A stretch of 64,000 bases of DNA from an uncultured virus (IMG/VR IMGVR_UViG_3300042350_002513) (IMGVR_UViG_3300042350_002513); one strand, 5' to 3'; numbered from the stretch's first letter, positions 42,061 through 63,951 are shown. The notes: generated from the sequence alone by a model not told the origin. Made by a program: numbers and translations.

Positions 42061-42083
42061 ATTCTTTAGTATTTATACACTCT

Positions 42084-43671: not shown

Positions 43672-43718
43672 ATTTTGTAGCTTATTATTTATACACTAAA
43701 ATTTACCGATTAAGGAAA

Positions 43719-46903: not shown

Positions 46904-48745
46904 TTAAATTAAAATTGGTGTAAATCCCGCAGCTACTATTTTATTTTCAGTAGTCATGATATCATTATAGCATTTGGAACCCCATTTCGCTAACATTAAA
47001 GCCGTGTAATTATCTTTTCTTGCTCTGTTAGGGGAATTGGAGCGTTTTAAGTGTTGAGGTAAATCAAAATTAACAGATCCACGGCTGCTAGTAGTAAATT
47101 CTACAAGCGAGCATTGCTTTTTGGTATTGTAAACCAATAAATCTTGATGCTCTATAAGGTCTAGCTTATTCCAATCTTTAATGTCTTCTATGAATATAAG
47201 ATCTTCAGGTATTCTCTTGTTTATTTCTTCATTAAAGAAAGATTCATTGGCTACAGTTTTAGATGCGAACCAAATTTTCTTATAGTCAATGGCTGCTTGC
47301 AGATTTTCGTTACCTCTTCGAATAAATGTAGTTGTGAATACCTGAGTTACTGCTATTTGCCTATTCTCAAGATTATATTGACTCTTAGCCTTCTGAACCA
47401 TCTTCGTATATTCAATACCCTCAAGATCAGAATCGAAGTCAATAAACTTTATCTTCTCAGATTCCGAGTTTACATACTGAGATTCATTATAAGTGTTGAA
47501 GAAAATATCAGCACCAGCATTATCGCAAATGATATAAACAATATTAAAGCTAGTCATTAAGTAATGAAAATATTTAATATGACTATTTAAGCTTCCAAGA
47601 CCTGCGTATGCATGAACAAGAACATCATTCTTATTTTCTCGGTCTATTTCTAAAATTGCCATTGCAAAATAGTCAGCATTTGGACTGTCGCTCATGTTAG
47701 GGTCCATTGCTAAGATATATTGCTTGCCAGAATCTCCTCTGATTTGAGAATGTGGCCTTTCTTCAAACTTAAGAGTGCATTCTTCCATCTTCTTCATGCT
47801 GAAGTAAGAATCGCTACCGTCAGTAAACTGAGCGCAGTATTCTCTCAAGAAAGAAGCATGAGAAGAGCCACCGTTTTGAGCTTCTTCTGTAATAGAAGAG
47901 TCAATCATCTCTGGCGGCAAAGCTTCATAACTTAATTGTGATACAAAGTAAGTTGCACTTGTTGGTTCTTTGGAATAAATGTTGTCGCACCATTCTTTAT
48001 AAGTTTTATAAAGGTTTTCAAAAGTATAAGAAGCAGAGGAAAGAGCAATCATCTTGGAAGTATTCTTAAATTCCATGCGATCAGCTTCTGTCATTGCGCC
48101 TTGGCGAATTAATTCATCTTCTTGTTCACGAATACTAATACGTTCTTTAATGTCTTGAGGAACAATCAAGAATGGCATCAATACGTTTTTAATAATATCT
48201 TCTGGCAATAATAAAAACTCGTCTAGTACAAGAACATTAGCACGGAAACCACGAATCTTTTCACCGCTTAGAGGAATAGCTTTGATAGAGCCTTCGTTTA
48301 TTGACCAATCATATTCGTCATTGCGTTTTGATTTTGCGCCGAACGCTTGCATCAATAAATCTGCGCCTTTAGACTCAGTAATCTTTTCTATTGAATTAAA
48401 AATACTTCTTGCTGTTCTGAATGTAGGACCAGCAATTAGGATTTTGCTCTTAGGCTCAAAGATGCATTGCAAAAAACAGAATACCGCAGCAGAGAAAGAC
48501 TTGGAAGCACCACGACCCCATACGTTCATGCAGAAATTGCGATTCAACATTCCTTTGATTACGATCTCTTGATAAGGCCATAATTTTATACCAGAAATTA
48601 GCTCTGTAGTTATGCCTATATTTGAACGCAAAAATTTAGCCAAAGTTATTTTGGCTTCTTTATCTTCAAGAGTATCTTTTAGTTTAGAATATTCGTCATT
48701 TAAGTTAGGAATTATTCTATTGTACTTTTCTGGGGTATACCACAT
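46904..48745 (-). CDS. terL: Terminase large subunit
   Basis: LWPYQ, Walker A GRGASKS, IRGFRANVLVLDE Walker B, FLREYCAQF, RNase H-like AMDP...D and KDNY.A. Confidence 0.9.
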   Translation of the reverse strand: MWYTPEKYNRIIPNLNDEYSKLKDTLEDKEAKITLAKFLRSNIGITTELISGIKLWPYQEIVIKGMLNRNFCMNVWGRGASKSFSAAVFCFLQCIFEPKSKILIAGPTFRTARSIFNSIEKITESKGADLLMQAFGAKSKRNDEYDWSINEGSIKAIPLSGEKIRGFRANVLVLDEFLLLPEDIIKNVLMPFLIVPQDIKERISIREQEDELIRQGAMTEADRMEFKNTSKMIALSSASYTFENLYKTYKEWCDNIYSKEPTSATYFVSQLSYEALPPEMIDSSITEEAQNGGSSHASFLREYCAQFTDGSDSYFSMKKMEECTLKFEERPHSQIRGDSGKQYILAMDPNMSDSPNADYFAMAILEIDRENKNDVLVHAYAGLGSLNSHIKYFHYLMTSFNIVYIICDNAGADIFFNTYNESQYVNSESEKIKFIDFDSDLEGIEYTKMVQKAKSQYNLENRQIAVTQVFTTTFIRRGNENLQAAIDYKKIWFASKTVANESFFNEEINKRIPEDLIFIEDIKDWNKLDLIEHQDLLVYNTKKQCSLVEFTTSSRGSVNFDLPQHLKRSNSPNRARKDNYTALMLAKWGSKCYNDIMTTENKIVAAGFTPILI

Positions 48746-49685: not shown

Positions 49686-50796
49686 TTAACACCTCATCTT
49701 CTGAAATTCCCAAGATGCGACATTTGATTTCATCCATTGTAGAAAGCCTGTCGATCTCATTTTTAACCATTGCTTTTCTTCTTTCAGCAAGTTTCAATAG
49801 TTGAGCGCGGGACTCTTCTTCTTTCCACATCTGAACAAGATTAAGAATACTGGCATTTTCTTTTATTTGCTTGCTAAGGCGATCACTGCGCTTTACTTTG
49901 AGGTCATTGAGAAGCTTTTGTTGGCGAATAGTAGATTGATTATACTCATCTCTTGCTCCGCTAATTGCTTCAATGAGACCCATTGGAATTTTGCCGCCGC
50001 CGTCTACCTCTACATCAATCTGATCTTGTAAAGTTTGAATTGTCTCTTGAATATTAGCCGAGATTACTACTTCAGTAGCCAACACAATGTATTGGTCTAC
50101 TTCTTCTTGAGTGAGATCTGGTTTGTCAAACGTATAACGTACAAATGAGCTTTCAAATAATTCACGATCAATGTTAGAAGTATAACTATTTATCTGATGC
50201 AAGAAACGATAAGTGTGCATGTAGCCAATGATAGCATTAATAGCAGCTTTCTGGCGTGAAGTTACTTTGTCTTTATCAATACCTTCGTGAACATATTTAT
50301 TTATGCGAAACAACATCCGCTCAAATGTCTTTGGCGGCATATATTCAGAGTTAGCAAGAGTCTCTACTTCTCTTTGAGATACTGGACCTGCTTGAATTAC
50401 TTTCTGATCAAGAGTTTTAATGAAATCAATAACTGTACGAGTCTCTTGACTGAGACTAGTAAGATTTTGGTTATTAAAAATACTCTTAGTGATCTCAAGT
50501 GCGCCCATTGAACCGGCATTATTAGCAATAAATTCTCTCTGGTCTGGAGATAGTTCAATTTTATCTTTCGCTAAGTATTCGTAGGATGCTCTTGCTTTAA
50601 TTTGTCTTGTTGACAAGAACTCTTTGACCTTTTTACCGTGCCAACTTCTACCGTCTGCGCCATCAACGTTAGGAAAAGCAAGCCTGACAAGTTCAAGCAA
50701 AGAAGGAGGATTAGTAGGACGATTGTTCCACTCATTTAAAATTGCCAATCTTTGTTGATCATTAAGTTCTTGAGGCTGGTTTCCATTTTCAGACAT
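49678..50796 (-). CDS. Hypothetical helical protein (terminase small subunit candidate)
   Basis: 372 aa with a C-terminal coiled coil, upstream of TerL; function positional only. Confidence 0.5.
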   Translation of the reverse strand: MSENGNQPQELNDQQRLAILNEWNNRPTNPPSLLELVRLAFPNVDGADGRSWHGKKVKEFLSTRQIKARASYEYLAKDKIELSPDQREFIANNAGSMGALEITKSIFNNQNLTSLSQETRTVIDFIKTLDQKVIQAGPVSQREVETLANSEYMPPKTFERMLFRINKYVHEGIDKDKVTSRQKAAINAIIGYMHTYRFLHQINSYTSNIDRELFESSFVRYTFDKPDLTQEEVDQYIVLATEVVISANIQETIQTLQDQIDVEVDGGGKIPMGLIEAISGARDEYNQSTIRQQKLLNDLKVKRSDRLSKQIKENASILNLVQMWKEEESRAQLLKLAERRKAMVKNEIDRLSTMDEIKCRILGISEDEVLNG

Positions 50797-51481
50797 AAAT
50801 TTCTACTTCTCCATTTACAATGCACTTCTTAGCTTTGACAATAATAGAACGCTTAAGGTTCTTTATCTGCTTGTAACCGGGGGAACGATTTTTTTCAGTA
50901 GTCTTAAATCCTAATACTTTAGCTACTTCTTCTTCTTTTTGATTTCTTAGACAAAGCATTTCATACACAACCCACTCTGCTGGCTTTAATACTTTCTTTA
51001 GTGCTGACGATAAGCTTTGTGTGCTTCTCAAGAGATCAAAGCCTTCGTTTGTCATGTCATGAACTTCTTTAATGTGATTTTCAAGAGGAAGAGTTACTTT
51101 TGTATTGAAAGCGTCTTTTTTATTATTCTCCCAATGAGCATACAAGGGGCACTTCTTGCATTGCTCACCATATATTGAACAAGAATCATCCCATTCTGCC
51201 GCCGCACACTTCAAACAAGGTCTAGCATAATTGCCATAGTTGTTTCTTATGATGTTTTTTATTTGATTAGAAATGATAATGTTTAACCAAGGGGCAAGAG
51301 GTTTCTTTGGATCATATAAAGTCCACTTTTTGTAAATATGAATCCTTAATATCTGCTCAACGTCCTCGAAATCAATCCAAGACAATGCAGCAAGGTTCCA
51401 CTTGTTCTTGCGTTTGCGAATTTCTTCGTCTATTATAGCAATGTTCTTTTCAAATGATTCTTTTTGGACTTTATGAGCCAT
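50789..51481 (-). CDS. Phage sigma70-like factor with Cys-rich insert
   Basis: DFEDVEQ.L......W..YDP......W......NQIKN..R (region 2) and a C-terminal EEVAKVLG HTH (region 4). Confidence 0.7.
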   Translation of the reverse strand: MAHKVQKESFEKNIAIIDEEIRKRKNKWNLAALSWIDFEDVEQILRIHIYKKWTLYDPKKPLAPWLNIIISNQIKNIIRNNYGNYARPCLKCAAAEWDDSCSIYGEQCKKCPLYAHWENNKKDAFNTKVTLPLENHIKEVHDMTNEGFDLLRSTQSLSSALKKVLKPAEWVVYEMLCLRNQKEEEVAKVLGFKTTEKNRSPGYKQIKNLKRSIIVKAKKCIVNGEVEIYV

Positions 51482-54169: not shown

Positions 54170-54604
54170 CTATTCTACGTTCGCCACGCTGTCAAGCCTG
54201 AAAAGCAGGAACTCGGGATCGTCCTTGTCGGGAGTGTATTCCCGGATCGTGGCGATTTCTTCGGGAGTGGCTTCCCGTCCGTCCACAAGGAATCGGATCG
54301 TCCTTTGGGCGTTGCTTGGCAAGCCCACAAGGTAAAGGTTCCCGTCCGTCTTATGGCGAGCCACGCCGTCCTTGACCCATTCCCACCAAGTCGGCTTTCC
54401 GACAGGCTCCCGTCCGTCCTTTTCCAAGCGGCGACCGTAGGAACCAAGCCCCGCCACGTTGACGACGACCCTGTGATCCCTTGTGACCCTTCCCGTCAAG
54501 GGATTGAGGGGAACGCCAGACCTGCCGCCCTTGTTCATTTTATGCTCGCCCTGAATCAGGATCGTGGCGACTTGACCGGCCCGGATGTTTTCGATGTTGA
54601 TCAT
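54170..54604 (-). CDS. Hypothetical protein, GC-rich paralogue of 55032-55460
   Basis: Start MINIENIRAGQ chosen by alignment with the paralogue. Confidence 0.85.
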   Translation of the reverse strand: MINIENIRAGQVATILIQGEHKMNKGGRSGVPLNPLTGRVTRDHRVVVNVAGLGSYGRRLEKDGREPVGKPTWWEWVKDGVARHKTDGNLYLVGLPSNAQRTIRFLVDGREATPEEIATIREYTPDKDDPEFLLFRLDSVANVE

Positions 54605-54684: not shown

Positions 54685-54723
54685 CGGAAAAGTGCGATTG
54701 TCACACAAAAGTAACAAATGCGT

Positions 54724-54909
54724 TTGGCACGGTCCATGCTCCCCAGCACGTTTCATGCCAAGTCTAAGTTGGCACACTTTTTGCTCCCCAGCAAGTCCTA
54801 TGCCAAGTCCGTCCAAACGATAGTTTTCCAATCTGGGGTCCCCAATTCCGAAAACTATCAAATCCCCATAGTTGGCATGGTTTCTGCTCCCCAGCAAGGG
54901 TCGTGCCAA
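54724..54909. promoter_or_regulatory. Three 38-bp palindromes, each two head-to-head sigma54-type boxes
   Basis: TTGGCA-N7-TGCT-CCCC-AGCA-N7-TGCCAA at 54724-54761, 54769-54806 and 54872-54909. Confidence 0.8.
54819..54859. repeat. 41-bp boundary element, copy 1
   Basis: GATAGTTTT CCAATCT GGGGTCCCC AATTCCG AAAACTATC. Confidence 0.95.
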
Positions 54910-55031
54910 GTGCCCGTTAACGTAGAAAATTAAAGTAGATTTAGTTCTTGTATATATATAAGTATATAGTAAATTGGCATAGTCAGTTTGGTTCTTATAT
55001 AAATACAACGTCACTATATAAATACAACATC

Positions 55032-55460
55032 ATGATCAATATAAATACAATACGCGCTGGTCAGATCGCTACTATACTACTAGAAGGCGAGTATAAATTA
55101 AACACTGGTGGCCGTAGTGGTATACCACTAAATATATACAAAGGCCGTGTCACTAGAAAGTTCCGTTTTACTATATCGTTGGCGGGTGAAGAAACCTATT
55201 ATAATATCAATCCCGATGCTATTGGTAAACCCACTTGGTTTGAGTTTATCAAAGACGGCGTAGTGAGAAACAAGAAAACCGGCCAATTGTATTTGGCTGG
55301 CATTCCTCATAACAACAAGAACAACAAGTTTGATTTATATATAGACGGTCGTCCTATTACTAAAGAAGAATACGACTATATTCAACAATATCGCCAAGAT
55401 AAAGAAGAATGCAAGTTCCTCACTATGTCTGTTGATAGTGTAGTAAATGTCGAAGACTGA
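55032..55460 (+). CDS. Hypothetical protein, AT-rich paralogue of 54170-54604
   Basis: MININTIRAGQIATILLEGE...GGRSG.PLN...GKPTW.E..KDGV.R.K..G.LYL.G.P. Confidence 0.85.
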   Translation: MININTIRAGQIATILLEGEYKLNTGGRSGIPLNIYKGRVTRKFRFTISLAGEETYYNINPDAIGKPTWFEFIKDGVVRNKKTGQLYLAGIPHNNKNNKFDLYIDGRPITKEEYDYIQQYRQDKEECKFLTMSVDSVVNVED

Positions 55461-55514
55461 TATATAAACAGTGGGGCGCGAATACTATAAACGCGCATTT
55501 AATACTAAAACACT

Positions 55515-55712
55515 ATGAATGCTAATAAAATAGGTGTTATGGAAATGATTGATATACGAATTGCTATTCAAGCAGAGATAGACAAATGTAATACGCTTAT
55601 AGCAGAGTGTGACAAAGGTAATTACAATAAGGACATCTTTGTTGATAAAAGAGATAGCCTTACTAGAGGTCTAGCTAAATTGAATAAGCAATACTATGAT
55701 TTCATGCTATGA
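55515..55712 (+). CDS. Hypothetical protein
   Basis: 65 aa, followed by a terminator; loosely similar to 61207-61395 (E..(D/E).R.A). Confidence 0.7.
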   Translation: MNANKIGVMEMIDIRIAIQAEIDKCNTLIAECDKGNYNKDIFVDKRDSLTRGLAKLNKQYYDFML

Positions 55713-55768
55713 TAATACTACTTCTTGTTGTCGTGTTAATAGGCATGACTAGATAAGCCCTTAATGAC

Positions 55769-55799
55769 AAACCCTCTGTAGTAATACAGGGGGTTTCTT
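55769..55799 (+). terminator. Intrinsic terminator
   Basis: AACCCTCTGTA-loop-TACAGGGGGTTTCTT. Confidence 0.75.
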
Positions 55800-55826
55800 G
55801 TTTATAAATAGTTGTTTATAAATAGC

Positions 55827-55867
55827 GATAGTTTTTGATTTTGGACACCCCGAATCCAGAAACTATC
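55827..55867. repeat. 41-bp boundary element, copy 2
   Basis: GATAGTTTT TGATTTT GGACACCCC GAATCCA GAAACTATC. Confidence 0.95.
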
Positions 55868-55988
55868 AAATCAGTGATAAATCACTAGTACTACTATTAT
55901 TTGGCATTTATTTGTTTAATATTTATTTAATATTTGCACAAAAAAACCCCACTGTTTATCACAGCGGGGTATTGTATTTGTTTAGTGT

Positions 55989-56405
55989 TTATTCATAATG
56001 TGGGCGAGGCTCCGCGCTATTGTCGGATTCGCCGCGCACCTGTTCGATGGTCACCCACAGTTCGCCGCCATCGTTCCATCCTGTGGGGATGTAGCCCTCA
56101 TCGTGGTACGCCGTGTCACATTCCTCGCCCGGAAGCGCGGCCATCGCACGATACCGCGCAGGGGCTTCCTCGCGGTTCTCGCGCTCCACTTCCGCCTTGG
56201 CCTTTTCAAGCCAAGCCTCGGCCCCCTCCGTGGTGGGGAAGTAAATTGACCCCTCCAGCGTATTCCTATCGTACCACCAGCCACCTTCCTCGGGTCCACC
56301 GTAGTTCTGGCTTCGGCGATACACACTGACCCACGCGCCTTGCGGCACGTTGAAGTCAGGATGGGATTCGATTTTTTCGATCAGCGACTGCATTGTTGTT
56401 TTCAT
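55989..56405 (-). CDS. Hypothetical phage protein (YGGPEEGGWWY family)
   Basis: VSVY.....YGGPEEGGWWY...P.RPHYE; promoter TTGTTT-N16-TATGGT 7 nt before the ATG; terminator at 55940-55970. Confidence 0.85.
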   Translation of the reverse strand: MKTTMQSLIEKIESHPDFNVPQGAWVSVYRRSQNYGGPEEGGWWYDRNTLEGSIYFPTTEGAEAWLEKAKAEVERENREEAPARYRAMAALPGEECDTAYHDEGYIPTGWNDGGELWVTIEQVRGESDNSAEPRPHYE

Positions 56406-56453
56406 CGTCCACACCATAACACCCGCACAAGGGAAAACAAGGGCGAAAGTGAT

Positions 56454-56496
56454 TTGTCACAGGAATTTAACAATCGCACTTGGCATGGTCCTTGCT
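56454..56496 (+). promoter_or_regulatory. Dyad plus sigma54-type box composite
   Basis: TTGTCAC-N6-TTAACAA-N6-TTGGCATGGTCCTTGCT. Confidence 0.7.
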
Positions 56497-56500
56497 TCAC

Positions 56501-56541
56501 CATAGTTTTCCGATTTTGGCACCCCAAAAGCAAAAACTATA
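56501..56541. repeat. 41-bp boundary element, copy 3
   Basis: CATAGTTTT CCGATTT TGGCACCCC AAAAGCA AAAACTATA. Confidence 0.95.
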
Positions 56542-56598
56542 AAAACTCCGCTATAGTAGTATAACGGAGTTATGTTATTTGTTATCTATTTAACAAAG

Positions 56599-57015
56599 TT
56601 AGTCCCATTTTAATGTCCATTCTTTACCAATAAAGGGACGCATTTCACGCAATTCAAAAGAACTAATACAAGAACTTCCGCACCTAGTCAATTCAGGATT
56701 ATCATTAGTCTTCCAATAAACAGTAGATCCATGTATAGAATTAACTATACAAGTACGGGGGCGATAGAAACCAAAATGCAAAAACTTATCTCCCACTTTA
56801 ATACTATCAGAAAGATCTTTCAATCCAAGTGAGTGACAGACAGAAGCTAATCTGCAATTGATCTTATCAAGCTCCAAAGCAATATCACTAGCAGAATGGA
56901 AATTAGCATTTGTTATGTTATTAGCGCAATCGTTGATTTGTTGAATGACAGACTTCACCTCATGCGCGAGCGCGAGGGTGGCGGCGGTAGTGGCGGGGCA
57001 GGAGGAGGAACTCAT
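56599..57015 (-). CDS. Hypothetical protein
   Basis: ATG 57015 lies 9 nt after TTGCAA-N16-TACCCT; terminator at 56541-56571. Confidence 0.75.
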   Translation of the reverse strand: MSSSSCPATTAATLALAHEVKSVIQQINDCANNITNANFHSASDIALELDKINCRLASVCHSLGLKDLSDSIKVGDKFLHFGFYRPRTCIVNSIHGSTVYWKTNDNPELTRCGSSCISSFELREMRPFIGKEWTLKWD

Positions 57016-57060
57016 GGTGCCCAAAGGGTAGCTGTCGGGAATGAGATTGCAAATCAATTT

Positions 57061-57101
57061 GATAGTTTTTCTTTTTGACCTGCCCAAAAGCGAAAACTAT
57101 G
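57061..57101. repeat. 41-bp boundary element, copy 4
   Basis: GATAGTTTT TCTTTTT GACCTGCCC AAAAGCG AAAACTATG. Confidence 0.9.
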
Positions 57102-57150
57102 AAAAAACCCCGCTGTACTAATACAACGGGGCTGTTTATTTATCACTATT

Positions 57151-57354
57151 TCACCAATCAGAATCTTGCCCAGTGGGGTCTTCGTCCCACCCGCGCTGCC
57201 ACTCAGAATGGCAGGGTTGGCAAACCGCGCTCCGTGCCTTCGGGGGCATCAAAACGCTGCAACGGGCGCAATGGAAACGCTCTGCGCCGTTTTCGTCGAT
57301 GACGGGGCAACCGCCAGCTTCGTGCCCACAACAAGGGAAGTCTTCGCAAGCCAT
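57151..57354 (-). CDS. Small Cys-rich (zinc-binding) protein
   Basis: CEDFPCCGH...C, CARC and CQPC; terminator at 57102-57133. Confidence 0.8.
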   Translation of the reverse strand: MACEDFPCCGHEAGGCPVIDENGAERFHCARCSVLMPPKARSAVCQPCHSEWQRGWDEDPTGQDSDW

Positions 57355-57438
57355 AATTTTGTATTGATTTTTTAATTGATTCTAACCGTCGCGCAGATTG
57401 TCGCTGACTTTTCATCTCAAATCAACGGCAAAAATCAT

Positions 57439-57481
57439 TTGTCACCAGAATTTAACAATTGGCTTTGGCATGAGATTTGCT
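57439..57481 (+). promoter_or_regulatory. Dyad plus sigma54-type box composite
   Basis: TTGTCAC-N6-TTAACAA-N6-TTGGCATGAGATTTGCT. Confidence 0.7.
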
Positions 57482-57485
57482 TCGG

Positions 57486-57526
57486 GATAGTTTCTGAAAT
57501 CGGGCACCCCAGATCCAAAAACTATG
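57486..57526. repeat. 41-bp boundary element, copy 5
   Basis: GATAGTTTC TGAAATC GGGCACCCC AGATCCA AAAACTATG. Confidence 0.95.
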
Positions 57527-57657
57527 AAATAGTGATAAATCAGTGATAAATCACTATTCTTTATTTATATTTGGTTATTATTTGCAGAACATTTGATTAA
57601 TATTTGACACAAAAAAACCCGCCGTATTACTACAGCGGGTCTCGTATTGTTATTGAA

Positions 57658-57915
57658 TTATGGTTCGTTGATGTATTGATTCCATTTATCAATAGCGTTT
57701 GTCAGAATGTATTCGTCAATCTCAGTGATAGAATCAGCATCAAACACTGATTTATCATAAGCAACGATACTGACATACTGTTGGCGAGTTTCGAGATCAT
57801 AATCAAATATCACTTCAACAGCAATATCAGAACCAAACACATTAATTTTGGAGTTACAAACACTGAGATTCCCTTTGTTTTTAAGGGTTCCGTTTACAAT
57901 AGGAATGAGATGCAT
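57658..57915 (-). CDS. Hypothetical protein
   Basis: 85 aa; terminator at 57611-57640. Confidence 0.7.
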   Translation of the reverse strand: MHLIPIVNGTLKNKGNLSVCNSKINVFGSDIAVEVIFDYDLETRQQYVSIVAYDKSVFDADSITEIDEYILTNAIDKWNQYINEP

Positions 57916-57923
57916 ATGATTTA

Positions 57924-58121
57924 TCAGAAGCGGCTGAGATGCAATTCGTACAATTCCTGAAAGTATAAATCAGTGATACTATCACACTCAGCTTCTGTTA
58001 AATCGCGATTCAATTGTTTATGAAAAGCGGAATCGACATAAGCATTGCAGCTACCGGGATTAATGATAATAACTTCCTCTAAATCACTAAACTTGATTGT
58101 GGTTTTTGTATTAGTACTCAT
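57924..58121 (-). CDS. Hypothetical protein
   Basis: Start MSTNTK after an A-rich leader; AYVDSA......R.LTE.E.D motif. Confidence 0.7.
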   Translation of the reverse strand: MSTNTKTTIKFSDLEEVIIINPGSCNAYVDSAFHKQLNRDLTEAECDSITDLYFQELYELHLSRF

Positions 58122-58215
58122 GTTGTGTTTATAAATAAGAACAGTCCGACACTGAAGCTTACCACGCCCACGGAAGGAGTAAACAGGTATTTTTGACCAA
58201 TTTTGATACCTAATC

Positions 58216-58256
58216 GATAGTTTTCCGTTTTGGGCTGCCCAGATCCAAAAACTATG
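58216..58256. repeat. 41-bp boundary element, copy 6
   Basis: GATAGTTTT CCGTTTT GGGCTGCCC AGATCCA AAAACTATG. Confidence 0.95.
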
Positions 58257-58327
58257 CCGAGAGCATAGGCGACAAACCCTGTCAAGCACTTTATTTGCAC
58301 TTTATTTGCGTCAAATTGGAATATTTT

Positions 58328-58355
58328 TTGACAACCGCCAGCGATCTGATAACTT
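58328..58355 (+). promoter_or_regulatory. sigma70-type promoter (leaderless)
   Basis: TTGACA-N16-TAACTT, ATG 9 nt downstream. Confidence 0.8.
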
Positions 58356-58364
58356 GTCCCCGTC

Positions 58365-58643
58365 ATGAATCAACACCAACACATCGACACCGCCAGCGAC
58401 CTCCGCGACCTCATCGCCATTGCGCCCACGGAGGAAACTCCCGTCGCCGAAGTCCCCACAACCCAAGTGCAAGTCAGTCAAGACATTTTTCTGGAAATGC
58501 GCGTCCAGCTTATGGCCTATCGCTCCGACGTTCGCTACTTCATGAACGGCATCATCGGCGAAGAAGAGAAGAAGAAAACCATTGACAAGTTGAACCAAGT
58601 CCTTGAAGACTCGGCTTGGGGAAAAGTCAAGATGATTTACTGA
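58365..58643 (+). CDS. Hypothetical protein
   Basis: 92 aa between a promoter and the CCCCGCTTCGGCGGGG terminator (58652-58671). Confidence 0.8.
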   Translation: MNQHQHIDTASDLRDLIAIAPTEETPVAEVPTTQVQVSQDIFLEMRVQLMAYRSDVRYFMNGIIGEEEKKKTIDKLNQVLEDSAWGKVKMIY

Positions 58644-58671
58644 AAAAACTCACCCCGCTTCGGCGGGGCTT

Positions 58672-58712
58672 CATAGTTTCCAGAACGGGGCACCCCAGAC
58701 GCAAAAACTATC
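58672..58712. repeat. 41-bp boundary element, copy 7
   Basis: CATAGTTTC CAGAACG GGGCACCCC AGACGCA AAAACTATC. Confidence 0.95.
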
Positions 58713-58789
58713 CCCTTCGCTCCCGCGAAGAAAAAGATTTTTGGTTTTTTATTTGACTCTTTCGGGCCAAAGTTTAATCTGTAGGGGTC

Positions 58790-58990
58790 ATGAGCAAAAC
58801 GATTGAATTTTACAACCGCGAAGTCTACGGCAACCTGCGCGAGTACGTTGCCAACGAAGGTGACGCAAACATCATTTACCGCTTGACGGGAAAGAAAACC
58901 ATCACTAGTGTGGAGCGCGAGTTGATTCGTGACCTCTCCGGTGGTCTGATTCATTTCAAACAAATTTTGCCCCCTTCGAAGTCGAAGTGA
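58790..58990 (+). CDS. Hypothetical protein
   Basis: 66 aa with VYG....Y.......I..LTGKKT motif; promoter TTGACT-N16-TAATCT at 58753-58780. Confidence 0.8.
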   Translation: MSKTIEFYNREVYGNLREYVANEGDANIIYRLTGKKTITSVERELIRDLSGGLIHFKQILPPSKSK

Positions 58991-59006
58991 GGGTGGGTTA
59001 AGGCAC

Positions 59007-59184
59007 AAGCGGCATGGTACGCAGGGAGACCCTGCGGCGGGTTAGTTGAACCTTTAGAAACACCGCTTTTTAGATTGGGTTCGCGTCAAATGGTACGCAG
59101 GGAGATCCTGCGGCAGGGTTTTTTCTAAGAGAATAAGACTTGTTCTCTTTTGGGTTTTGACCCTCATGAAACAGACGCGAATCC
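59007..59184 (+). ncRNA. Tandem pair of putative structured RNA elements
   Basis: Two copies of stem-AUGGUA-hairpin-GC-hairpin-NNNGAAACA-stem, with different but complementary outer stems. Confidence 0.6.
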
Positions 59185-59188
59185 TTTC

Positions 59189-59229
59189 GATAGTTTCGGG
59201 CAATGGGCACCCCCAACAAAAAAACTATG
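59189..59229. repeat. 41-bp boundary element, copy 8
   Basis: GATAGTTTC GGGCAAT GGGCACCCC CAACAAA AAAACTATG. Confidence 0.95.
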
Positions 59230-59246
59230 AAAAACGATTTTTCTTT

Positions 59247-59275
59247 TTGACAATCAACGCCGATTCCATTAACTT
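59247..59275 (+). promoter_or_regulatory. sigma70-type promoter (leaderless)
   Basis: TTGACA-N17-TAACTT, ATG 7 nt downstream. Confidence 0.8.
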
Positions 59276-59282
59276 GTCCCCG

Positions 59283-59588
59283 ATGAAATTAATGACGAAA
59301 CAACTCACTGAAAAACTCAAAAAGGCCGGTTCTGACGGCATGGTCCCCATTTGTAAGCTTTTCACCCCGTGGGGTGCCGTTACTTGGTTGATCACTGGGA
59401 TCGAAGGTGGCATCCTTTACGGGTTCGCTGACTTGGGCATGGGTTGCGTTGAATGGGGCGGGATCGCTTCCGTGGAAGAATTGGAAGCAATCAAGGGACC
59501 GCTTGGAATGACCATTGAGCGTGACTTGTACTGGCAACCCAAGGAAGGCGTGAATTACTTTGAACTTGAAACCCTCGCGGCTGTTTAA
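59283..59588 (+). CDS. DUF2958-like protein
   Basis: KLFTPWG..TW.I......L.G..DLG.G..E.G..S..EL....G..G..IERDLYW. Confidence 0.8.
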   Translation: MKLMTKQLTEKLKKAGSDGMVPICKLFTPWGAVTWLITGIEGGILYGFADLGMGCVEWGGIASVEELEAIKGPLGMTIERDLYWQPKEGVNYFELETLAAV

Positions 59589-59590
59589 TT

Positions 59591-59773
59591 ATGAGAGAAT
59601 CTGTTTATGCTGCCGAGTGTTGGGCTACTGATAAATCAAAAGAAGAAATCCAATCAGAAATCAATTACTTACAAAACCTTTGGAAGATTAAACACCCAAA
59701 CCCTTTCCCTAAAAACGCACACTATAGTCACATCAGGATTGTAACACTAAAAGAAATCCTTAAGAATAAATAA
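59591..59773 (+). CDS. Hypothetical protein
   Basis: 60 aa in a tightly packed operon. Confidence 0.65.
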   Translation: MRESVYAAECWATDKSKEEIQSEINYLQNLWKIKHPNPFPKNAHYSHIRIVTLKEILKNK

Positions 59774-59775
59774 AT

Positions 59776-59979
59776 ATGAATCCAAACTATAGACAACTCG
59801 CTGAACGTGAAAAACATTTAATCCCAAAAGAGTTCTGGGATATGATGGAATCACAAGCTTGGGAGCGTGGACATTCAAGTGGACAACAGGAAGTCGATTT
59901 ACTACTGATGAATCTAGTGAATGATTTTGTTGACGCTACTATCAAATACACTATAAGAACTGGTAAGACGCTTGTTTAA
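59776..59979 (+). CDS. Hypothetical protein
   Basis: 67 aa with AWERGHSSG..EV motif. Confidence 0.75.
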   Translation: MNPNYRQLAEREKHLIPKEFWDMMESQAWERGHSSGQQEVDLLLMNLVNDFVDATIKYTIRTGKTLV

Positions 59980-59983
59980 TAAT

Positions 59984-60109
59984 ATGTCAATCGACGAAAT
60001 TCTTTTTAATTACAACAAAGCATACGATAAACTAGTTCATTGCGCCGAAAATGAATATGAAGTAGCAGAAAAGAAATTGCAATATTGGCGGCATTTATTT
60101 TTCAGATAA
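59984..60109 (+). CDS. Small hypothetical protein (41 aa)
   Basis: Hand-translated MSIDEILFNYNKAYDKL...HLFFR; fills the operon gap exactly. Confidence 0.6.
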   Translation: MSIDEILFNYNKAYDKLVHCAENEYEVAEKKLQYWRHLFFR

Positions 60110-60110
60110 T

Positions 60111-60305
60111 ATGAAAGCTCTCACACTTCAACAGATACAAGCTAACTTAAAAGAATGGATGGGTGATAGTATAAAGCCCGATACCAGAAGCGGAAAACTT
60201 GCAGAGCGTACTTACATAAAGGCTCTTTTAGATACAGGCGCAACTGTTCCGCCGATTTGCATTATACTACTACAGAGTGGACGTAGTATTGTAAACTTCA
60301 AATAA
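60111..60305 (+). CDS. Hypothetical protein
   Basis: 64 aa ending PP...I...SGRSI; terminator at 60311-60332. Confidence 0.7.
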   Translation: MKALTLQQIQANLKEWMGDSIKPDTRSGKLAERTYIKALLDTGATVPPICIILLQSGRSIVNFK

Positions 60306-60332
60306 ATAGTAACCCCGCCCCGGCGGGGCTTT

Positions 60333-60373
60333 CATAGTTTCCGAAATTGGCCTCCCCGAATCAAAAAACTATC
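60333..60373. repeat. 41-bp boundary element, copy 9
   Basis: CATAGTTTC CGAAATT GGCCTCCCC GAATCAA AAAACTATC. Confidence 0.95.
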
Positions 60374-60390
60374 AAATCGAAAAAAAATCT

Positions 60391-60418
60391 TTGACACTCT
60401 CCAAGAATCTGATATTTT
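60391..60418 (+). promoter_or_regulatory. sigma70-type promoter (leaderless)
   Basis: TTGACA-N16-TATTTT, ATG 7 nt downstream. Confidence 0.75.
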
Positions 60419-60425
60419 CTCTCAC

Positions 60426-60818
60426 ATGAACAAAATCACTTTGTCTCTATTTGTCGTCGCCCTTGTAACCCTTGGGTTTTCCCGCCGCAACCACGGCACG
60501 AAGGAAGACTTGTTTCGCGCAATGGCCCAAGTTGAATCTTCAGGCAATCCCAAGGCAATCAACGCCAAGGAAACTGCCCTTGGAATTTACCAAATCCGCC
60601 CCATGTATTTTCTTGACGCTGGAGTCAAGGGGGCGCATAGTCAGGTGTATGACCCTGCGGTCGCCCGTAAGGTCTGTGAGCGTTACTTTATGCGATATGA
60701 GCCTAAAGCTTTTGCCAATAATGACATAGAGACTTTGGCTCGCTTGCATAATGGCGGTCCTAATTGGCGCAAAAAAGATACTGATAAATACTGGAATAAA
60801 ATCAAAAAACACTTGTAA
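60426..60818 (+). CDS. Lysozyme-like protein (destabilase/transglycosylase type) with N-terminal hydrophobic segment
   Basis: VESSG...G.YQI...Y..DA...ARLHNGGP...T.KYW. Confidence 0.8.
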   Translation: MNKITLSLFVVALVTLGFSRRNHGTKEDLFRAMAQVESSGNPKAINAKETALGIYQIRPMYFLDAGVKGAHSQVYDPAVARKVCERYFMRYEPKAFANNDIETLARLHNGGPNWRKKDTDKYWNKIKKHL

Positions 60819-60822
60819 TAAT

Positions 60823-60924
60823 ATGAGCAACAAAACCTTTGATAGAATCATAAATACTGTAATTACATTACTCGTCATTGCTACTGTTGTTAGTGTTACT
60901 GTGGTTTACAATATTATCTTTTAA
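60823..60924 (+). CDS. Small membrane peptide (33 aa)
   Basis: Hand-translated MSNKTFDRIINTVITLLVIATVVSVTVVYNIIF. Confidence 0.55.
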   Translation: MSNKTFDRIINTVITLLVIATVVSVTVVYNIIF

Positions 60925-60928
60925 TAAT

Positions 60929-61210
60929 ATGGAACTCACTTTTCTTTCTGACCCCGGCCACGGTTGGCTTCGCGTTCCTCATAAATTGCTTGAAGACTGG
61001 AATATTGATATCTTAATATCAGAGTATAGTTATAGAACAAGAGACTTTGCTTACTTAGAGGAAGACTGTGATGCTTCTATCTTCATTGACGAAGCCAAGA
61101 AAAGGAATTACAAATATTCTATTCACTATAAGTTGATTAAAGACTTCGATTACTATCTCAAAAGCGTTGGCAATTACTATAGATTCAACAATAACCTAAG
61201 AACAGCATGA
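60929..61210 (+). CDS. Conserved phage protein (DPGHGWL...YLEEDCD family)
   Basis: SDPGHGWL.V...IS.YSY.....YLEEDCDA..F motif. Confidence 0.8.
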   Translation: MELTFLSDPGHGWLRVPHKLLEDWNIDILISEYSYRTRDFAYLEEDCDASIFIDEAKKRNYKYSIHYKLIKDFDYYLKSVGNYYRFNNNLRTA

Positions 61211-61395
61211 GTGCAGAATTAAAAATAACAATACAAGAAGTAGTAGAACTCCGTGTAGCACTAAATAACGCAGAACGCCGTATCAAAGAGCTAATGGCGT
61301 TAAAGCATGAAGACTGGCATAAATTGTATCATTTAGATATTGATTCAATAGAAAAAGGGAAACAAGCCCTTAAAACTATTATACAAAGAGATTAA
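61207..61395 (+). CDS. Hypothetical protein
   Basis: 62 aa, ATGA overlap with the previous gene; terminator at 61401-61422. Confidence 0.7.
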   Translation: MSAELKITIQEVVELRVALNNAERRIKELMALKHEDWHKLYHLDIDSIEKGKQALKTIIQRD

Positions 61396-61422
61396 ATCAC
61401 AACCCCGCTTCGGCGGGGTTTT

Positions 61423-61463
61423 CATAGTTTCTGGAATCGGGCACCCCGAAGGAAAAAACTATC
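61423..61463. repeat. 41-bp boundary element, copy 10
   Basis: CATAGTTTC TGGAATC GGGCACCCC GAAGGAA AAAACTATC. Confidence 0.95.
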
Positions 61464-61526
61464 CCTTGCAAGAAAAGTGATCATTTCCATTGACGCTTTC
61501 CCTTTCAAGGGCTACTGTTGGGGCGT

Positions 61527-62402
61527 ATGAATAACACAGTTAAAAACGCTATCCGCCACCTCGTTTGCAAAGCCTATGACGCTTTCGCGCAAAACAAAAT
61601 AGACATTAGTGTCATATCACTCCCCGGTTCTTCGTGGGAGTTTGAGAAATACGTTGTTAATCACAGAGACTATTCTAATACGTTTACTACAAACGGATAT
61701 GGTCTTGAAATGTCACTGTTTGAATGTGACAGCAGTGAGTATCAGAGCAACTTGCGCCCAGTTGCTGCTATCTTTCCGCATAACAAGACTAGCGCATACA
61801 TGCTTTCTTGTTCTAATATTACTTATCGTAATGAATACATAAACGCTGATAGTGTTAATAAACTCAAATCCAAAAACATTTTCGCATGGTTTGATTTCTG
61901 CGGTAATCCTACTACACAAAATCTTGATTTAATTAATACCGCTAAGGGCAAGACTGCTACTTTTGTTTTTACTTTCAATACGCACTGGCGTTCTGTCAGT
62001 AATCTTAGCCCTGAGATTCTTGAAGTTGCTAATCAATACAACAAAGGATATGCCATTCAATGCTACTTGCTGCGATTGGCTATTGATTTAGGTTTGTCAC
62101 TGATTTGGTCTTTTGAGTATGTGTCAAATAATAATCCCATGATGACTATCTGTGTCAGTAATGACATTAATGTTATCACAAATCGTCCTTTGCAGGTTAA
62201 GGACTTCATCACTCACGAAAAGAAAGACAAAAAGATCAATCTTAATAAGACTAAATTGGTTCTCAATAAACGCGAATTGAGTGCCGTCTATGCGGATTTG
62301 AAAGAGCGTGTTAGTGATAGTGAAATCTGTAACAAACACAATATTAGTACAGGCACACTTGCGGCTTGTAAGGCTTGGATGACTATGTGGAAAGCTTGGT
62401 AA
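61527..62402 (+). CDS. Rossmann/methyltransferase-like protein with C-terminal HTH
   Basis: ISLPG..W.FE...LFE.D...FAWFDFCG resembles class I SAM-MTase motifs; promoter TTGACG-N17-TACTGT; terminator at 62418-62440. Confidence 0.55.
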   Translation: MNNTVKNAIRHLVCKAYDAFAQNKIDISVISLPGSSWEFEKYVVNHRDYSNTFTTNGYGLEMSLFECDSSEYQSNLRPVAAIFPHNKTSAYMLSCSNITYRNEYINADSVNKLKSKNIFAWFDFCGNPTTQNLDLINTAKGKTATFVFTFNTHWRSVSNLSPEILEVANQYNKGYAIQCYLLRLAIDLGLSLIWSFEYVSNNNPMMTICVSNDINVITNRPLQVKDFITHEKKDKKINLNKTKLVLNKRELSAVYADLKERVSDSEICNKHNISTGTLAACKAWMTMWKAW

Positions 62403-62439
62403 TACAATAGCATTATCACCCCGCCTTCGGGCGGGGTTT

Positions 62440-62480
62440 TATAGTTTCCAGATCCGGGCACCCCGAATCCAAAAACTATG
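62440..62480. repeat. 41-bp boundary element, copy 11
   Basis: TATAGTTTC CAGATCC GGGCACCCC GAATCCA AAAACTATG. Confidence 0.95.
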
Positions 62481-62535
62481 CGAAAAACCCCCTAGTGTTA
62501 AACACTAGAGGGTGCTTTATTTGTTATTTGTTGCT

Positions 62536-62730
62536 TTATTCTTTAATATTTTCTTTCTTATCAACAAGCCTATAGACTTTGAAACGAATATTATTAAGGT
62601 CTTTTCTAATACTCGCTAATTCGGCGCGAATCTTTTCGCGTCTGTTTAACAATAGCCTTGCAGACTTTTTCATCTGCTTAAGGTTATTGATTTTAGTTTG
62701 CAACTTAGTTATCTGCTTTTCTTGTGTCAT
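62536..62730 (-). CDS. Basic coiled-coil hypothetical protein
   Basis: 64 aa; terminator at 62483-62513. Confidence 0.65.
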   Translation of the reverse strand: MTQEKQITKLQTKINNLKQMKKSARLLLNRREKIRAELASIRKDLNNIRFKVYRLVDKKENIKE

Positions 62731-62794
62731 TTTCTTTTATTGTTTTCTGTTATTATACCTATAACTAATACTATTACAAGTATTGCTATAATCA

Positions 62795-63427
62795 TTAGTG
62801 CAATTTGTAACTAACGTTTTTAACTGATTTATCCCAACAGGCGCGGCAATTGAGACATTTATTATCTTGATTGGAGGCAGGACAATTGAATGTTTTATCT
62901 TTTGACACACCAGAAGTCGTTAATCCTAATATCTTAGCAATACCAGTAGGCGCATTGCCGTTTATCATTAGGGAAGAAAGGCGAATAGTGAGATTGGAAG
63001 GAATATCACCAAATTGTTTCTTGTATTGAGTAACAAATGAATATTCCCTAGTGGGTAACCAGAATTTAATACTAGGAAGATTGATAGCAATCTGACAAAT
63101 CTTTCTCAAATGCTCCACAGATTGAATATCTCCACTATCATGCCACCGGAAATAGCCACTAGTTTCTTTTCCAGCAATAGCAATAGTCATAGCGTCAACC
63201 CACTCGGGTTTGTTAATAGAGTCAAATCGTTTTTGTAAAGCGTTTCTGACATTGGGCATGTTATAGAAACCTTTTAATGCATAACACTTAGAACAAACAC
63301 TATTCTTAATAGACACTAATTTTCCGCCCGTTTTACAATACTTTGCCGGGATTGAATAGGAGCGGCACGGCATTTTTGAGGGCGCAGAGAGTCCACCAAC
63401 GAGGTCAAGGGCAAGGTCAAGATTCAT
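62795..63427 (-). CDS. GP88-family (radical-SAM-like, Cys-rich) protein
   Basis: LS.PSKMP..SYSIPA..C..G......SVC..CYA.KG.Y, FRWHDSGD, FWLPTRE, CPA......C..CRACW; start 63427 or 63430. Confidence 0.8.
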   Translation of the reverse strand: MNLDLALDLVGGLSAPSKMPCRSYSIPAKYCKTGGKLVSIKNSVCSKCYALKGFYNMPNVRNALQKRFDSINKPEWVDAMTIAIAGKETSGYFRWHDSGDIQSVEHLRKICQIAINLPSIKFWLPTREYSFVTQYKKQFGDIPSNLTIRLSSLMINGNAPTGIAKILGLTTSGVSKDKTFNCPASNQDNKCLNCRACWDKSVKNVSYKLH

Positions 63428-63482
63428 CATGGAAAGGTTAACGCAAAGGGCAAACCAGCGCAACACTTTTGTTGCGTTTTTC

Positions 63483-63523
63483 AATAGTTTTTCGCGCCGG
63501 GGTGTCCAGTTTCAAAAACTATC
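63483..63523. repeat. 41-bp boundary element, copy 12 (core inverted)
   Basis: AATAGTTTT TCGCGCC GGGGTGTCC AGTTTCA AAAACTATC. Confidence 0.9.
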
Positions 63524-63603
63524 AAAATGTAATAATAAACCCCAATCTATCAAATCGGGGCTTATTTGACTTATTTGCGGTTAATGTTTTTAATATTTGA
63601 AGC

Positions 63604-63867
63604 TTAATGAAAGAAAATTCTTGACTCGTCTTTGAATGTTTTCTCTTTGCCAGTTTCGTCCCATTCGATACCGTATGTCAAACCTTCTTCGACATGATGT
63701 TTATGTAAATAATTGAAACCCTTGTATTGCTTTGCTTCCATCAGCAGGTCCGTCACGAAGAACTGGAGAGTTCTGCGTTGAATGATCGCTTCGTTTTTGC
63801 TGGTGCAAAAGAAGTGATTGGCTTTCAGTTTGACTGATTCAAGGCTAACCGTTTTACGTTTTGTCAT
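63604..63867 (-). CDS. Hypothetical protein
   Basis: 87 aa with Y.GFNYL motif; promoter TTGCAA-N16-TACTAT 7 nt upstream. Confidence 0.8.
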   Translation of the reverse strand: MTKRKTVSLESVKLKANHFFCTSKNEAIIQRRTLQFFVTDLLMEAKQYKGFNYLHKHHVEEGLTYGIEWDETGKEKTFKDESRIFFH

Positions 63868-63910
63868 CGGGGAAATAGTAATTCATGGGCATGAGATTGC
63901 AAGGGTTTTT

Positions 63911-63951
63911 CATAGTTTTTTTATTCTGGCACCCCAGACCCGAAAACTATC
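63911..63951. repeat. 41-bp boundary element, copy 13
   Basis: CATAGTTTT TTTATTC TGGCACCCC AGACCCG AAAACTATC. Confidence 0.95.

Follow-up and report, generated by a model that had tools for sequence, protein, structure and literature searches.

Sigma-54-type boxes in PeSL-like cassettes suggest possible use of the host sigma-54 RNA polymerase by a family of uncultured freshwater phages

Phage transcription is known to depend on sigma-70 of the host, on sigma factors of the phage itself or on phage RNA polymerases. Sigma-54 promoters, for which the classical consensus is TGGCACG-N4-TTGCW, are silent until an ATPase activator acts, and our full-text literature search returned no description of a phage lineage built around promoters of this type or their arrays. 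Among bacterial sites, oppositely oriented sigma-54 promoters are known at hycA/hypA and zraP/hydH, as given in the relevant passages of PMC3844500, and sigma-54 and sigma-70 promoters overlap or compete at glmY/glmZ and in the class I/II sites of Schaefer et al. 2015 (PMC4551910). The closest described phage system is the PeSL cassette of T4-type phages, in which a repeated stem-loop terminator, where polyG/polyC tracts and G-T pairs are frequent, is combined with a strong sigma-70 early promoter, as PMC2839356 describes. PeSLs are located in hyperplastic regions, where they separate ORFans and act as points of recombination, as excerpts of PMC2839356 and PMC4122927 report (Arbiol et al. 2010; Comeau et al. 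2014). The sequences compared here suggest that a large uncultured freshwater phage family may use the host sigma-54 RNA polymerase in a previously undescribed way.

The stretch analysed, hereafter the window, comprises 64,000 nt of an uncultured virus (IMGVR_UViG_3300042350_002513) and is part of a large phage with a GC content of 35%; a near-identical IMG/VR record of 61 kb is rated 36% complete. Its minus-strand structural block holds a tape-measure-like ORF of at least 2388 aa plus ORFs of 2477 and 2685 aa (2-7165, 21863-29296 and 29301-37358, all minus strand), the first with a phage minor-tail (tape-measure) domain and a weak HATPase_c match, and Laminin_G_3 domains occur in several neighbouring tail genes. 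The window also encodes a terminase (46904-48745), PhoH, an endonuclease and a small sigma-70 region 2 protein (50789-51481), whilst scans of it for Rfam families and tRNA genes found none. Because cultured phages yielded no blastn match to 53-58 kb and the terminase is at most 25% identical to that of any cultured phage, the host could not be inferred. A Bacteroidota host was considered on the grounds that window genes have AT-rich leaders without Shine-Dalgarno motifs, but was not supported, as TTTG-N18-21-TAnnTTTG is not enriched (4 vs 2.5 expected) and relatives carry consensus sigma-70 promoters and purine-rich ribosome-binding sites (RBS). In the related G005 lineage (e.g. L067 1700-3400) these are strong RBS and perfect TTGACT-N17-TGGTATAAT promoters, and the window and G005 lineages may differ in their hosts or translation signals. 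Set beside T4-type phages, the window phage also has T4-late-like motifs: TATAAATA, the late-promoter motif of T4, has 24 occurrences in the window where 9.4 are expected (e.g. 42070-42077 (-), 43686-43693 (-), 54998-55047 (+) and 55803-55824 (+)), with several copies 10-20 nt before start codons, and the 230-aa protein at 50789-51481, which contains sigma-70 region 2 only, could be the matching gp55-like late sigma factor.

The array studied here marks the border between the conserved block and a 54-64 kb region of small genes on both strands, each with its own terminator. The sequence-only reading had described three 38-bp units of the form TTGGCA-N7-TGCT-CCCC-AGCA-N7-TGCCAA, the six half-sites of which keep GG-N10-GC spacing, and had noted that the cluster straddles copy 1 of a 41-bp inverted repeat; we recovered all of this, with the six half-sites as read and the spacing kept in 6/6. 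The array and its flanks contain the following features:

54170-54604, minus strand: GC-rich paralog of 144 aa, transcribed leftward from the array
54698-54717, plus strand: TTGTCAC-N7-(T)TAACAA element, with the first plus-strand box 6-7 bp further downstream; the element also precedes the single boxes at 56481 and 57466
54724-54761, no strand assigned: palindromic unit 1, plus box TGGCACGGTCCATGCT (54725-54740) and minus box TGGCATGAAACGTGCT (54745-54760), face to face across a 4-bp CCCC gap
54769-54806, no strand assigned: palindromic unit 2, plus box 54770-54785 and minus box 54790-54805
54819-54859, no strand assigned: copy 1 of the 41-bp stem-loop element (GATAGTTTTC..GGGGTCCCC..GAAAACTATC), between units 2 and 3
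54872-54909, no strand assigned: palindromic unit 3, plus box 54873-54888 and minus box 54893-54908
55032-55460, plus strand: AT-rich paralog of 142 aa, about 50% identical to the product of 54170-54604, transcribed rightward

In order, the array runs + - + -, then the stem-loop, then + -, with units 1 and 2 also standing back to back (TGCCAA-N7-TTGGCA) and an AT-rich stretch (54920-55060) adjoining. The core TGCTCCCCAGCA has three exact copies in the window, all within the three units. The pattern TGGCAY-N6-TGCT is matched nine times in the 64-kb window against 0.28 expected, a number reached by 0/100 shuffles, and six of the nine matches fall inside the 186-bp cluster; the other three (56481-56496 and 57466-57481 on the plus strand, 33327-33342 on the minus strand) are boxes beyond those of the sequence-only reading. 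When the 38-bp units were folded as single-stranded DNA, the fixed arms alone paired and the N7 middles stayed unpaired, as claimed earlier; with pairing confined to the arms around 12-14-nt internal loops (dG -6.2 to -7.3, z -1.3 to -3.1), simple hairpins were rejected as an account of these units. The 41-bp stem-loop keeps its pairing in relatives through compensatory changes, as seen in the alignment of orthologous arrays. The TTGTCAC-N7-(T)TAACAA element at 54698-54717 may be an operator or part of a leftward promoter; in relatives it takes the form of two TGTNACA palindromes 11 bp apart, with an operator-like look.

The two paralogs that diverge from the array keep this synteny in 19 of the 36 related loci searched. 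A homologue search returned 71 lineage-restricted hypothetical proteins, no Pfam or PHROG family was assigned, and the AlphaFold2 model is mostly beta (pLDDT 68), with no Foldseek match in the PDB, one uncharacterised phage protein of no named function in BFVD (E 7.7e-4) and nothing informative in the protein atlas (scores at most 0.83). Examined as a candidate DNA binder by these family, fold and structure searches, the paralog gave no DNA-binding hint. Three TATAAATA motifs (54998, 55017 and 55040) precede the AT-rich paralog, and such T4-late-like motifs are carried by this copy and not by the GC-rich one.

Beyond the array, the boxes of the window and the stem-loops that accompany them are as follows:

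33327-33342, minus strand: isolated box TGGCACAAGCGTTGCT, inside the 2685-aa ORF in sense orientation, which may be a chance match
56454-56540, plus strand: single module with TTGTCAC..TTAACAA (56454-56473), box TGGCATGGTCCTTGCT (56481-56496), 5 nt and a 39-nt stem-loop (56502-56540)
57439-57525, plus strand: single module with TTGTCAC..TTAACAA (57439-57458), box TGGCATGAGATTTGCT (57466-57481), 5 nt and a stem-loop (57487-57525)
54820, 55828, 56502, 57062, 57487, 58217, 58673, 59190, 60334, 61424, 62441, 63484 and 63912, no strand assigned: copies of the 39-nt stem-loop

Both single modules share one order, TTGTCAC-N7-TTAACAA, 7 nt, box, 5 nt, stem-loop and terminator, and lie upstream of minus-strand GC-rich genes (55989-56417 for module 56454-56540 and 57151-57354 for module 57439-57525), with their boxes facing away from these genes and toward the stem-loop and terminator. 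The minus-strand genes 54170-54604, 55989-56417 and 57151-57354 are visibly high in GC for a phage of 35% GC, and each is preceded by TTGTCAC-N7-TTAACAA and a box. In the modules (56480-56508 and 57465-57493), the stem-loop's first bases, TAGTTT, come 17 nt after TTGGCA, so placed that a sigma-70-like -35/-10 pair is superimposed on the sigma-54-type box. Degenerate box-like sequences, GGGAATGAGATTGCAA (57037-57052) and TGGGCATGAGATTGCA (63886-63901), lie 9-10 nt before stem-loop copies, and the similar GGAATGAGAGTTGCAA recurs in the L033/L044/L059 lineage; these could be boxes that have decayed or members of a second class of motif. Four freshwater/riverine RNA runs cover 0.05-0.11 of 53-62 kb as short assembled contigs at 88-99% identity, and one 222-nt metatranscriptome contig spans 57396-57614, across the module at 57439-57525. 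The assembled contigs of the four runs, which are without strand, start or level information, gave no cover of 54724-54909.

The 39-nt stem-loop (ATAGTTT-N25-AAACTAT) has 13 copies at 54.8-64 kb, all in one orientation regardless of gene strand. Its core is a G-tract/C-tract, GGGCACCCC or GGGGTCCCC, and from 54820 to 63950 it occupies nearly every intergenic gap, directly beside terminators. The minus-strand fold of most copies is more stable by 1-10 kcal/mol because of G-U/G-T pairs (e.g. -21.5 vs -11.2 at 62441), whilst copies 55828 and 57062 favour the plus strand. The locus thereby resembles PeSLs in its terminator/stem-loop/promoter-like composites, repeated between small ORFans of a hypervariable region and recurring about every 1 kb in relatives, in its stem-loops with G-tract/C-tract cores and G-T pairs, and in its whole-module indels between close relatives. 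It differs in that the PeSL promoter is a sigma-70 consensus, whereas here a sigma-54-type box stands alone or upstream of a sigma-70 promoter. A sigma-70 component is present in the G005 lineage (TTGACT-N17-TGGTATAAT), but in the window sigma-70-like hits are not enriched (26 vs 22.8 expected) and it is the sigma-54-type box that recurs. PeSLs are found in T4-type phages, and the phages described here are not T4 relatives by their terminase, with its identity of at most 25% to any cultured phage.

Orthologous arrays of close relatives differ by the gain or loss of entire boxes, and many contigs break at arrays: L010, L013, L016, L019, L025, L030, L054 and L055 begin or end within about 1 kb of them, which likely reflects disruption of assembly by repeats and population variability. 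In the L027/L057 (49-kb IMG/VR contig) and L045/L063 lineage, there is an unbroken run of 8-10 cassettes, each about 1 kb long and bounded by the same module of about 170 bp; the module consists of a face-to-face pair, a 58-nt hairpin flanked by GGGGCCCC and a back-to-back pair. Such variability, together with the AT-rich stretch beside the window array and the recombination at PeSLs described in parts of PMC2839356 and PMC4122927, would be in keeping with boxes that act at the DNA level, as replication-origin iterons or substrates for cassette shuffling, and have no role in transcription. We consider this very improbable. An origin fits poorly with lineages in which boxes return at intervals of about 1 kb, on 8-10 cassette junctions of each contig, and beside the window array no initiator gene was recognised. 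Recombination alone leaves selection on a bipartite motif with free spacers unexplained; it is compatible with a promoter role and would be secondary to it, as in PeSLs.

To assess conservation in related phages, we searched IMG/VR and found the exact palindrome in 22 contigs, a variant that allows any central 4 bp in 30 contigs (32 stretches) and the back-to-back pattern in 57 stretches on about 40 contigs, with phage genomes of 150-200 kb among the palindrome carriers. Both palindrome patterns were absent from 185,579 bacterial and archaeal species, one genome each, and no host or prophage copy of the palindrome was found among them. Since only 0.004-0.07 hits were expected by chance in these genomes, their absence gives no sign of avoidance, and the viral hits are therefore not chance matches. 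Four long relatives, of 203 kb and 161 kb (circularly assembled), 153 kb and 124 kb, have 7-16 strict boxes each (reversed-pattern control 0), mostly in one zone of a few kb, with 2-3 scattered boxes each in G003 and G006. Across 12 aligned orthologous arrays the TTGGCA, TGCT, AGCA and TGCCAAGT columns are invariant, whilst variation is seen in the spacers, in the central gap of unit 3 and even in how many boxes there are. The close face-to-face pairs (TGCT-AGCA gap 3-8, n = 50) have a gap of 4 in 31 cases, 5 in 9, 8 in 6 and 3 in 4, and the close back-to-back pairs (TGCCA-TGGCA gap, n = 39) one of 9 in 30 cases and 7 in 9. A total of 226 unique boxes comprised 109 with a face-to-face partner, 16 abutting a GGGGCCCC-flanked hairpin, 9 abutting an ATAGTT-type stem-loop, 4 in tandem and 88 in other contexts. 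Five tandem boxes 26-28 bp apart lie upstream of a gene in contig L014.

The motif itself is closely constrained. In 162 unique TGGCA-N7-TGC sites from the loci, the unfixed positions were a preceding T (-1) in 92%, a pyrimidine after TGGCA in 100% (C 54%, T 46%, purine never), a purine at the next base in 99% (G 68%, A 31%), a T (-15) before TGC in 49% and a T (-11) after TGC in 97%, giving the consensus tTGGCA-Y-R-N4-tTGC-T, with Y at -22 and R at -21. The sequence-only reading had named relatives that keep the palindrome and lose GG-N10-GC as its own counter-case, which did not appear; we found TGGCA-N7-TGCT at N7 in 216 unique sites, at N6 in 1 and at N8 in 0, so that the -24 GG and -12 GC elements are conserved at an invariant 10-bp GG-GC spacing. 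ChIP-supported sigma-54 sites of Salmonella and E. coli show the same degeneracy in the site lists of PMC3844500 and PMC4591121. Judged by eye against these lists, the box motif is a match to the sigma-54 -24/-12 consensus, degenerate positions included. Eight divergent phage lineages share an identical consensus (reversed-pattern control 0-2), and the boxes are sigma-54-type by every sequence criterion tested, namely consensus, Y/R positions, spacing and lineages. Between some of these lineages, identity is as low as 39-47% for PhoH and 28% for the flanking paralog; a motif unchanged across lineages with such diverged proteins is more readily reconciled with a conserved host factor than with a phage protein that evolves fast.

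We therefore weighed two kinds of binding partner. Tentatively, and at somewhat less than even chances, we favour the half-sites as promoter elements of the host sigma-54 holoenzyme, set in PeSL-like cassettes, with the cluster acting as the divergent control region of the two paralogs. The boxes share with bacterial sigma-54 promoters tTGGCA-Y-R-N4-tTGC-T, GG-N10-GC, zero tolerance in spacing, asymmetry and use as single copies. They differ in lying on a phage and at very high local density, with sigma-54 dependence putative; face-to-face pairs with a 3-5-bp gap, present in these phages, occur in 0 of about 185,000 prokaryotic genomes. Alternatively, the boxes may be operators of a phage-encoded (or other host) DNA-binding protein, their resemblance to sigma-54 sites being incidental and the arrays serving as cooperative platforms that would regulate the divergent paralogs and neighbouring sigma-70 promoters. 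The regular face-to-face and back-to-back geometry with its 45-bp alternating lattice, the tandem sites at 26-28 bp, too close for holoenzymes, and box positions that vary relative to genes as transcription-factor sites do, all argue for such operators, and the paralogs that flank the array in 19/36 loci could be autoregulated binders. An operator protein would nevertheless have to recognise an asymmetric site that works as a singleton, and to reproduce the fixed bases, Y/R degeneracy and absolute spacing of sigma-54 sites with no drift of the motif between lineages whose proteins are 28-47% identical, whilst the flanking paralog itself has no DNA-binding hint. We consider this explanation unlikely, though a live rival.

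Placement relative to genes is clearly promoter-like in the G004/G005/L055 lineage and ambiguous in the window's own. Genes of the former have clear purine-rich RBS and consensus sigma-70 promoters, and three arrangements recur: box, 17-nt inverted repeat, RBS and ATG (3 genomes); box, 8-10 nt, 6-bp stem-loop with a T-run, TTGACT-N17-TGGTATAAT, RBS and ATG (several per genome); and tandem boxes. The sigma-70 promoter downstream of box and stem-loop has the form TTGAC(T/G/A)-N17-TATAAT, and its -35 element recurs 36-37 nt after the box. Over L066, L067, L068 and L055, a sense gene with RBS and ATG lies within 200 nt of 14/34 boxes, against 5/34 for the divergent control, a count that covers G003, G004, G005 and L055 and includes seven G003 boxes without a gene either way. 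With crude longest-ORF calls across all lineages, 99 intergenic boxes point toward a 5' end and 55 toward a 3' end, 48 lie inside called ORFs and, for 24, the nearest 400 nt hold no ORF; the single boxes divide 12 toward a 5' end and 17 toward a 3' end under the same crude calls. A count requiring Shine-Dalgarno motifs for 50 single boxes (8 sense, 14 divergent) is unreliable, because window genes lack such motifs.

These placements also bear on the proposal of the sequence-only reading that the cluster is a decoy, sink or roadblock. Under this alternative the boxes would be a non-productive platform for the sigma-54 holoenzyme, working as a sink, roadblock or insulator at cassette boundaries and neighbouring promoters. 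Several features lean this way: with a gap of 4 bp between face-to-face boxes, the predicted start of each falls within its partner, no activator gene or enhancer was found, the single-module box faces the terminator of the upstream gene in the orientation expected for a head-on block to read-through, and boxes of the G005 lineage lie about 36 nt upstream of sigma-70 promoters. The C of the -12 TGCT is invariant, and Schaefer et al. tie this C to repressive, activator-dependent complexes in the part of their paper that deals with it (PMC4551910). Sections of the same source describe repression of sigma-70 promoters by sigma-54 through competition, and most E. coli sigma-54 sites are transcriptionally inactive in the portion of PMC4591121 concerned. 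On the other hand, neither a set geometry, nor a constant 5 nt to the stem-loop, nor placement directly before RBS and ATG is required of a pure decoy, and complete relatives carry only 7-16 strict boxes per genome. The decoy, sink or roadblock gained no specific support; boxes of the G004/G005/L055 lineage hold ordinary promoter positions, with the sense excess over the control given above. We regard it as unlikely, though a live rival. Its suggested location on early-entering DNA was not borne out: the terminal repeats of two complete relatives (G003 and G004) measure only 123 and 127 bp and are assembly overlaps, and arrays at physical genome ends were rejected as unproven. A homologous phage mimic of the RpoN-box type also found no backing, since the sigma-54 DNA-binding domain is absent from the six phage records searched, a result that concerns homologous and not non-homologous binders.

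The proximity of boxes to sigma-70-type promoters recalls the overlapping promoters of the glmY/glmZ type, in which a sigma-54 box likewise lies near or over a sigma-70-type promoter; here TTGGCA doubles as a -35-like hexamer. The glmY/glmZ-type overlaps are single chromosomal sites with known activators, whereas the phage arrangement is repeated at many cassette junctions. Plain sigma-70 promoters with TTGGCA as the -35 were rejected as a general account of the boxes, as a -10 at 17 bp is missing from the face-to-face boxes and TGCT is left unexplained.

If the half-sites are promoter elements for the host holoenzyme, the boxes would be the -24/-12 elements that it recognises, and the cassettes that bear them, as counterparts of PeSLs, would separate the small accessory genes of the hypervariable region. 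The three face-to-face pairs and one stem-loop would form the divergent control region of 54170-54604 (leftward) and 55032-55460 (rightward), giving three rightward and three leftward promoters. Their predicted starts would lie 19 bp from the motif centre, following the rule used in PMC4591121, and the nearest sense promoters about 130 nt from each start codon. As each predicted start falls within the partner, the two boxes of a pair would be occupied only one at a time, and it is a reasonable inference that face-to-face boxes 4 bp apart are not both occupied. Firing would need an activator. The enhancer-binding ATPase domain (PF00158) had no match in G001-G004 and G006, a weak match in G005 being a RuvB-like protein of 296 aa, and no enhancer-like repeat was recognised at -80 to -150 of the boxes. 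As no canonical activator is phage-encoded, a host enhancer-binding protein or a phage factor would be required, and a host activator is possible. A further difference from bacterial sigma-54 promoters, beside the lack of an enhancer or activator gene, is an inverted repeat spanning the predicted start; in three lineages it begins 1-10 nt past the box. The motif, its strict spacing, its conservation, its cassette context and, in one lineage, its promoter-like placement are what the sequences show; sigma-54 binding, the direction of firing, the activator and the timing are what we infer here. Counted against the promoter reading are the missing activator and enhancer-like site, the split of 99 vs 55 gene ends, the single boxes at 12 vs 17 and those of the window that point away, as well as the fixed gaps within pairs and the 26-28-bp tandems of L014, denser than holoenzyme footprints allow; packing of this density is more typical of cooperative protein binding. 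The 5/6 match of TTGGCA to the sigma-70 -35 hexamer also counts against it, some modules having a -10-like hexamer 17 bp downstream.

Since sigma-54 promoters are silent without an activator, they would provide a phage that uses them with a switch of unusual tightness. In the furthest-reaching version, which we hold to be distinctly unlikely, the host sigma-54 holoenzyme would run a whole temporal class of accessory genes without a canonical enhancer-binding protein, the promoter being opened by a new phage activator or by the start-spanning inverted repeat, and dense arrays would also soak up the small sigma-54 pool and so silence sigma-54-dependent stress or defence responses of the host during infection. 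Were it true that phages open sigma-54 closed complexes in another way, this would bear on a long-studied mechanism; were the boxes instead decoys or roadblocks, they would represent a DNA-based means of disabling a host sigma factor. Ultimately, the 186-bp fragment is a compact and testable reagent under either reading.
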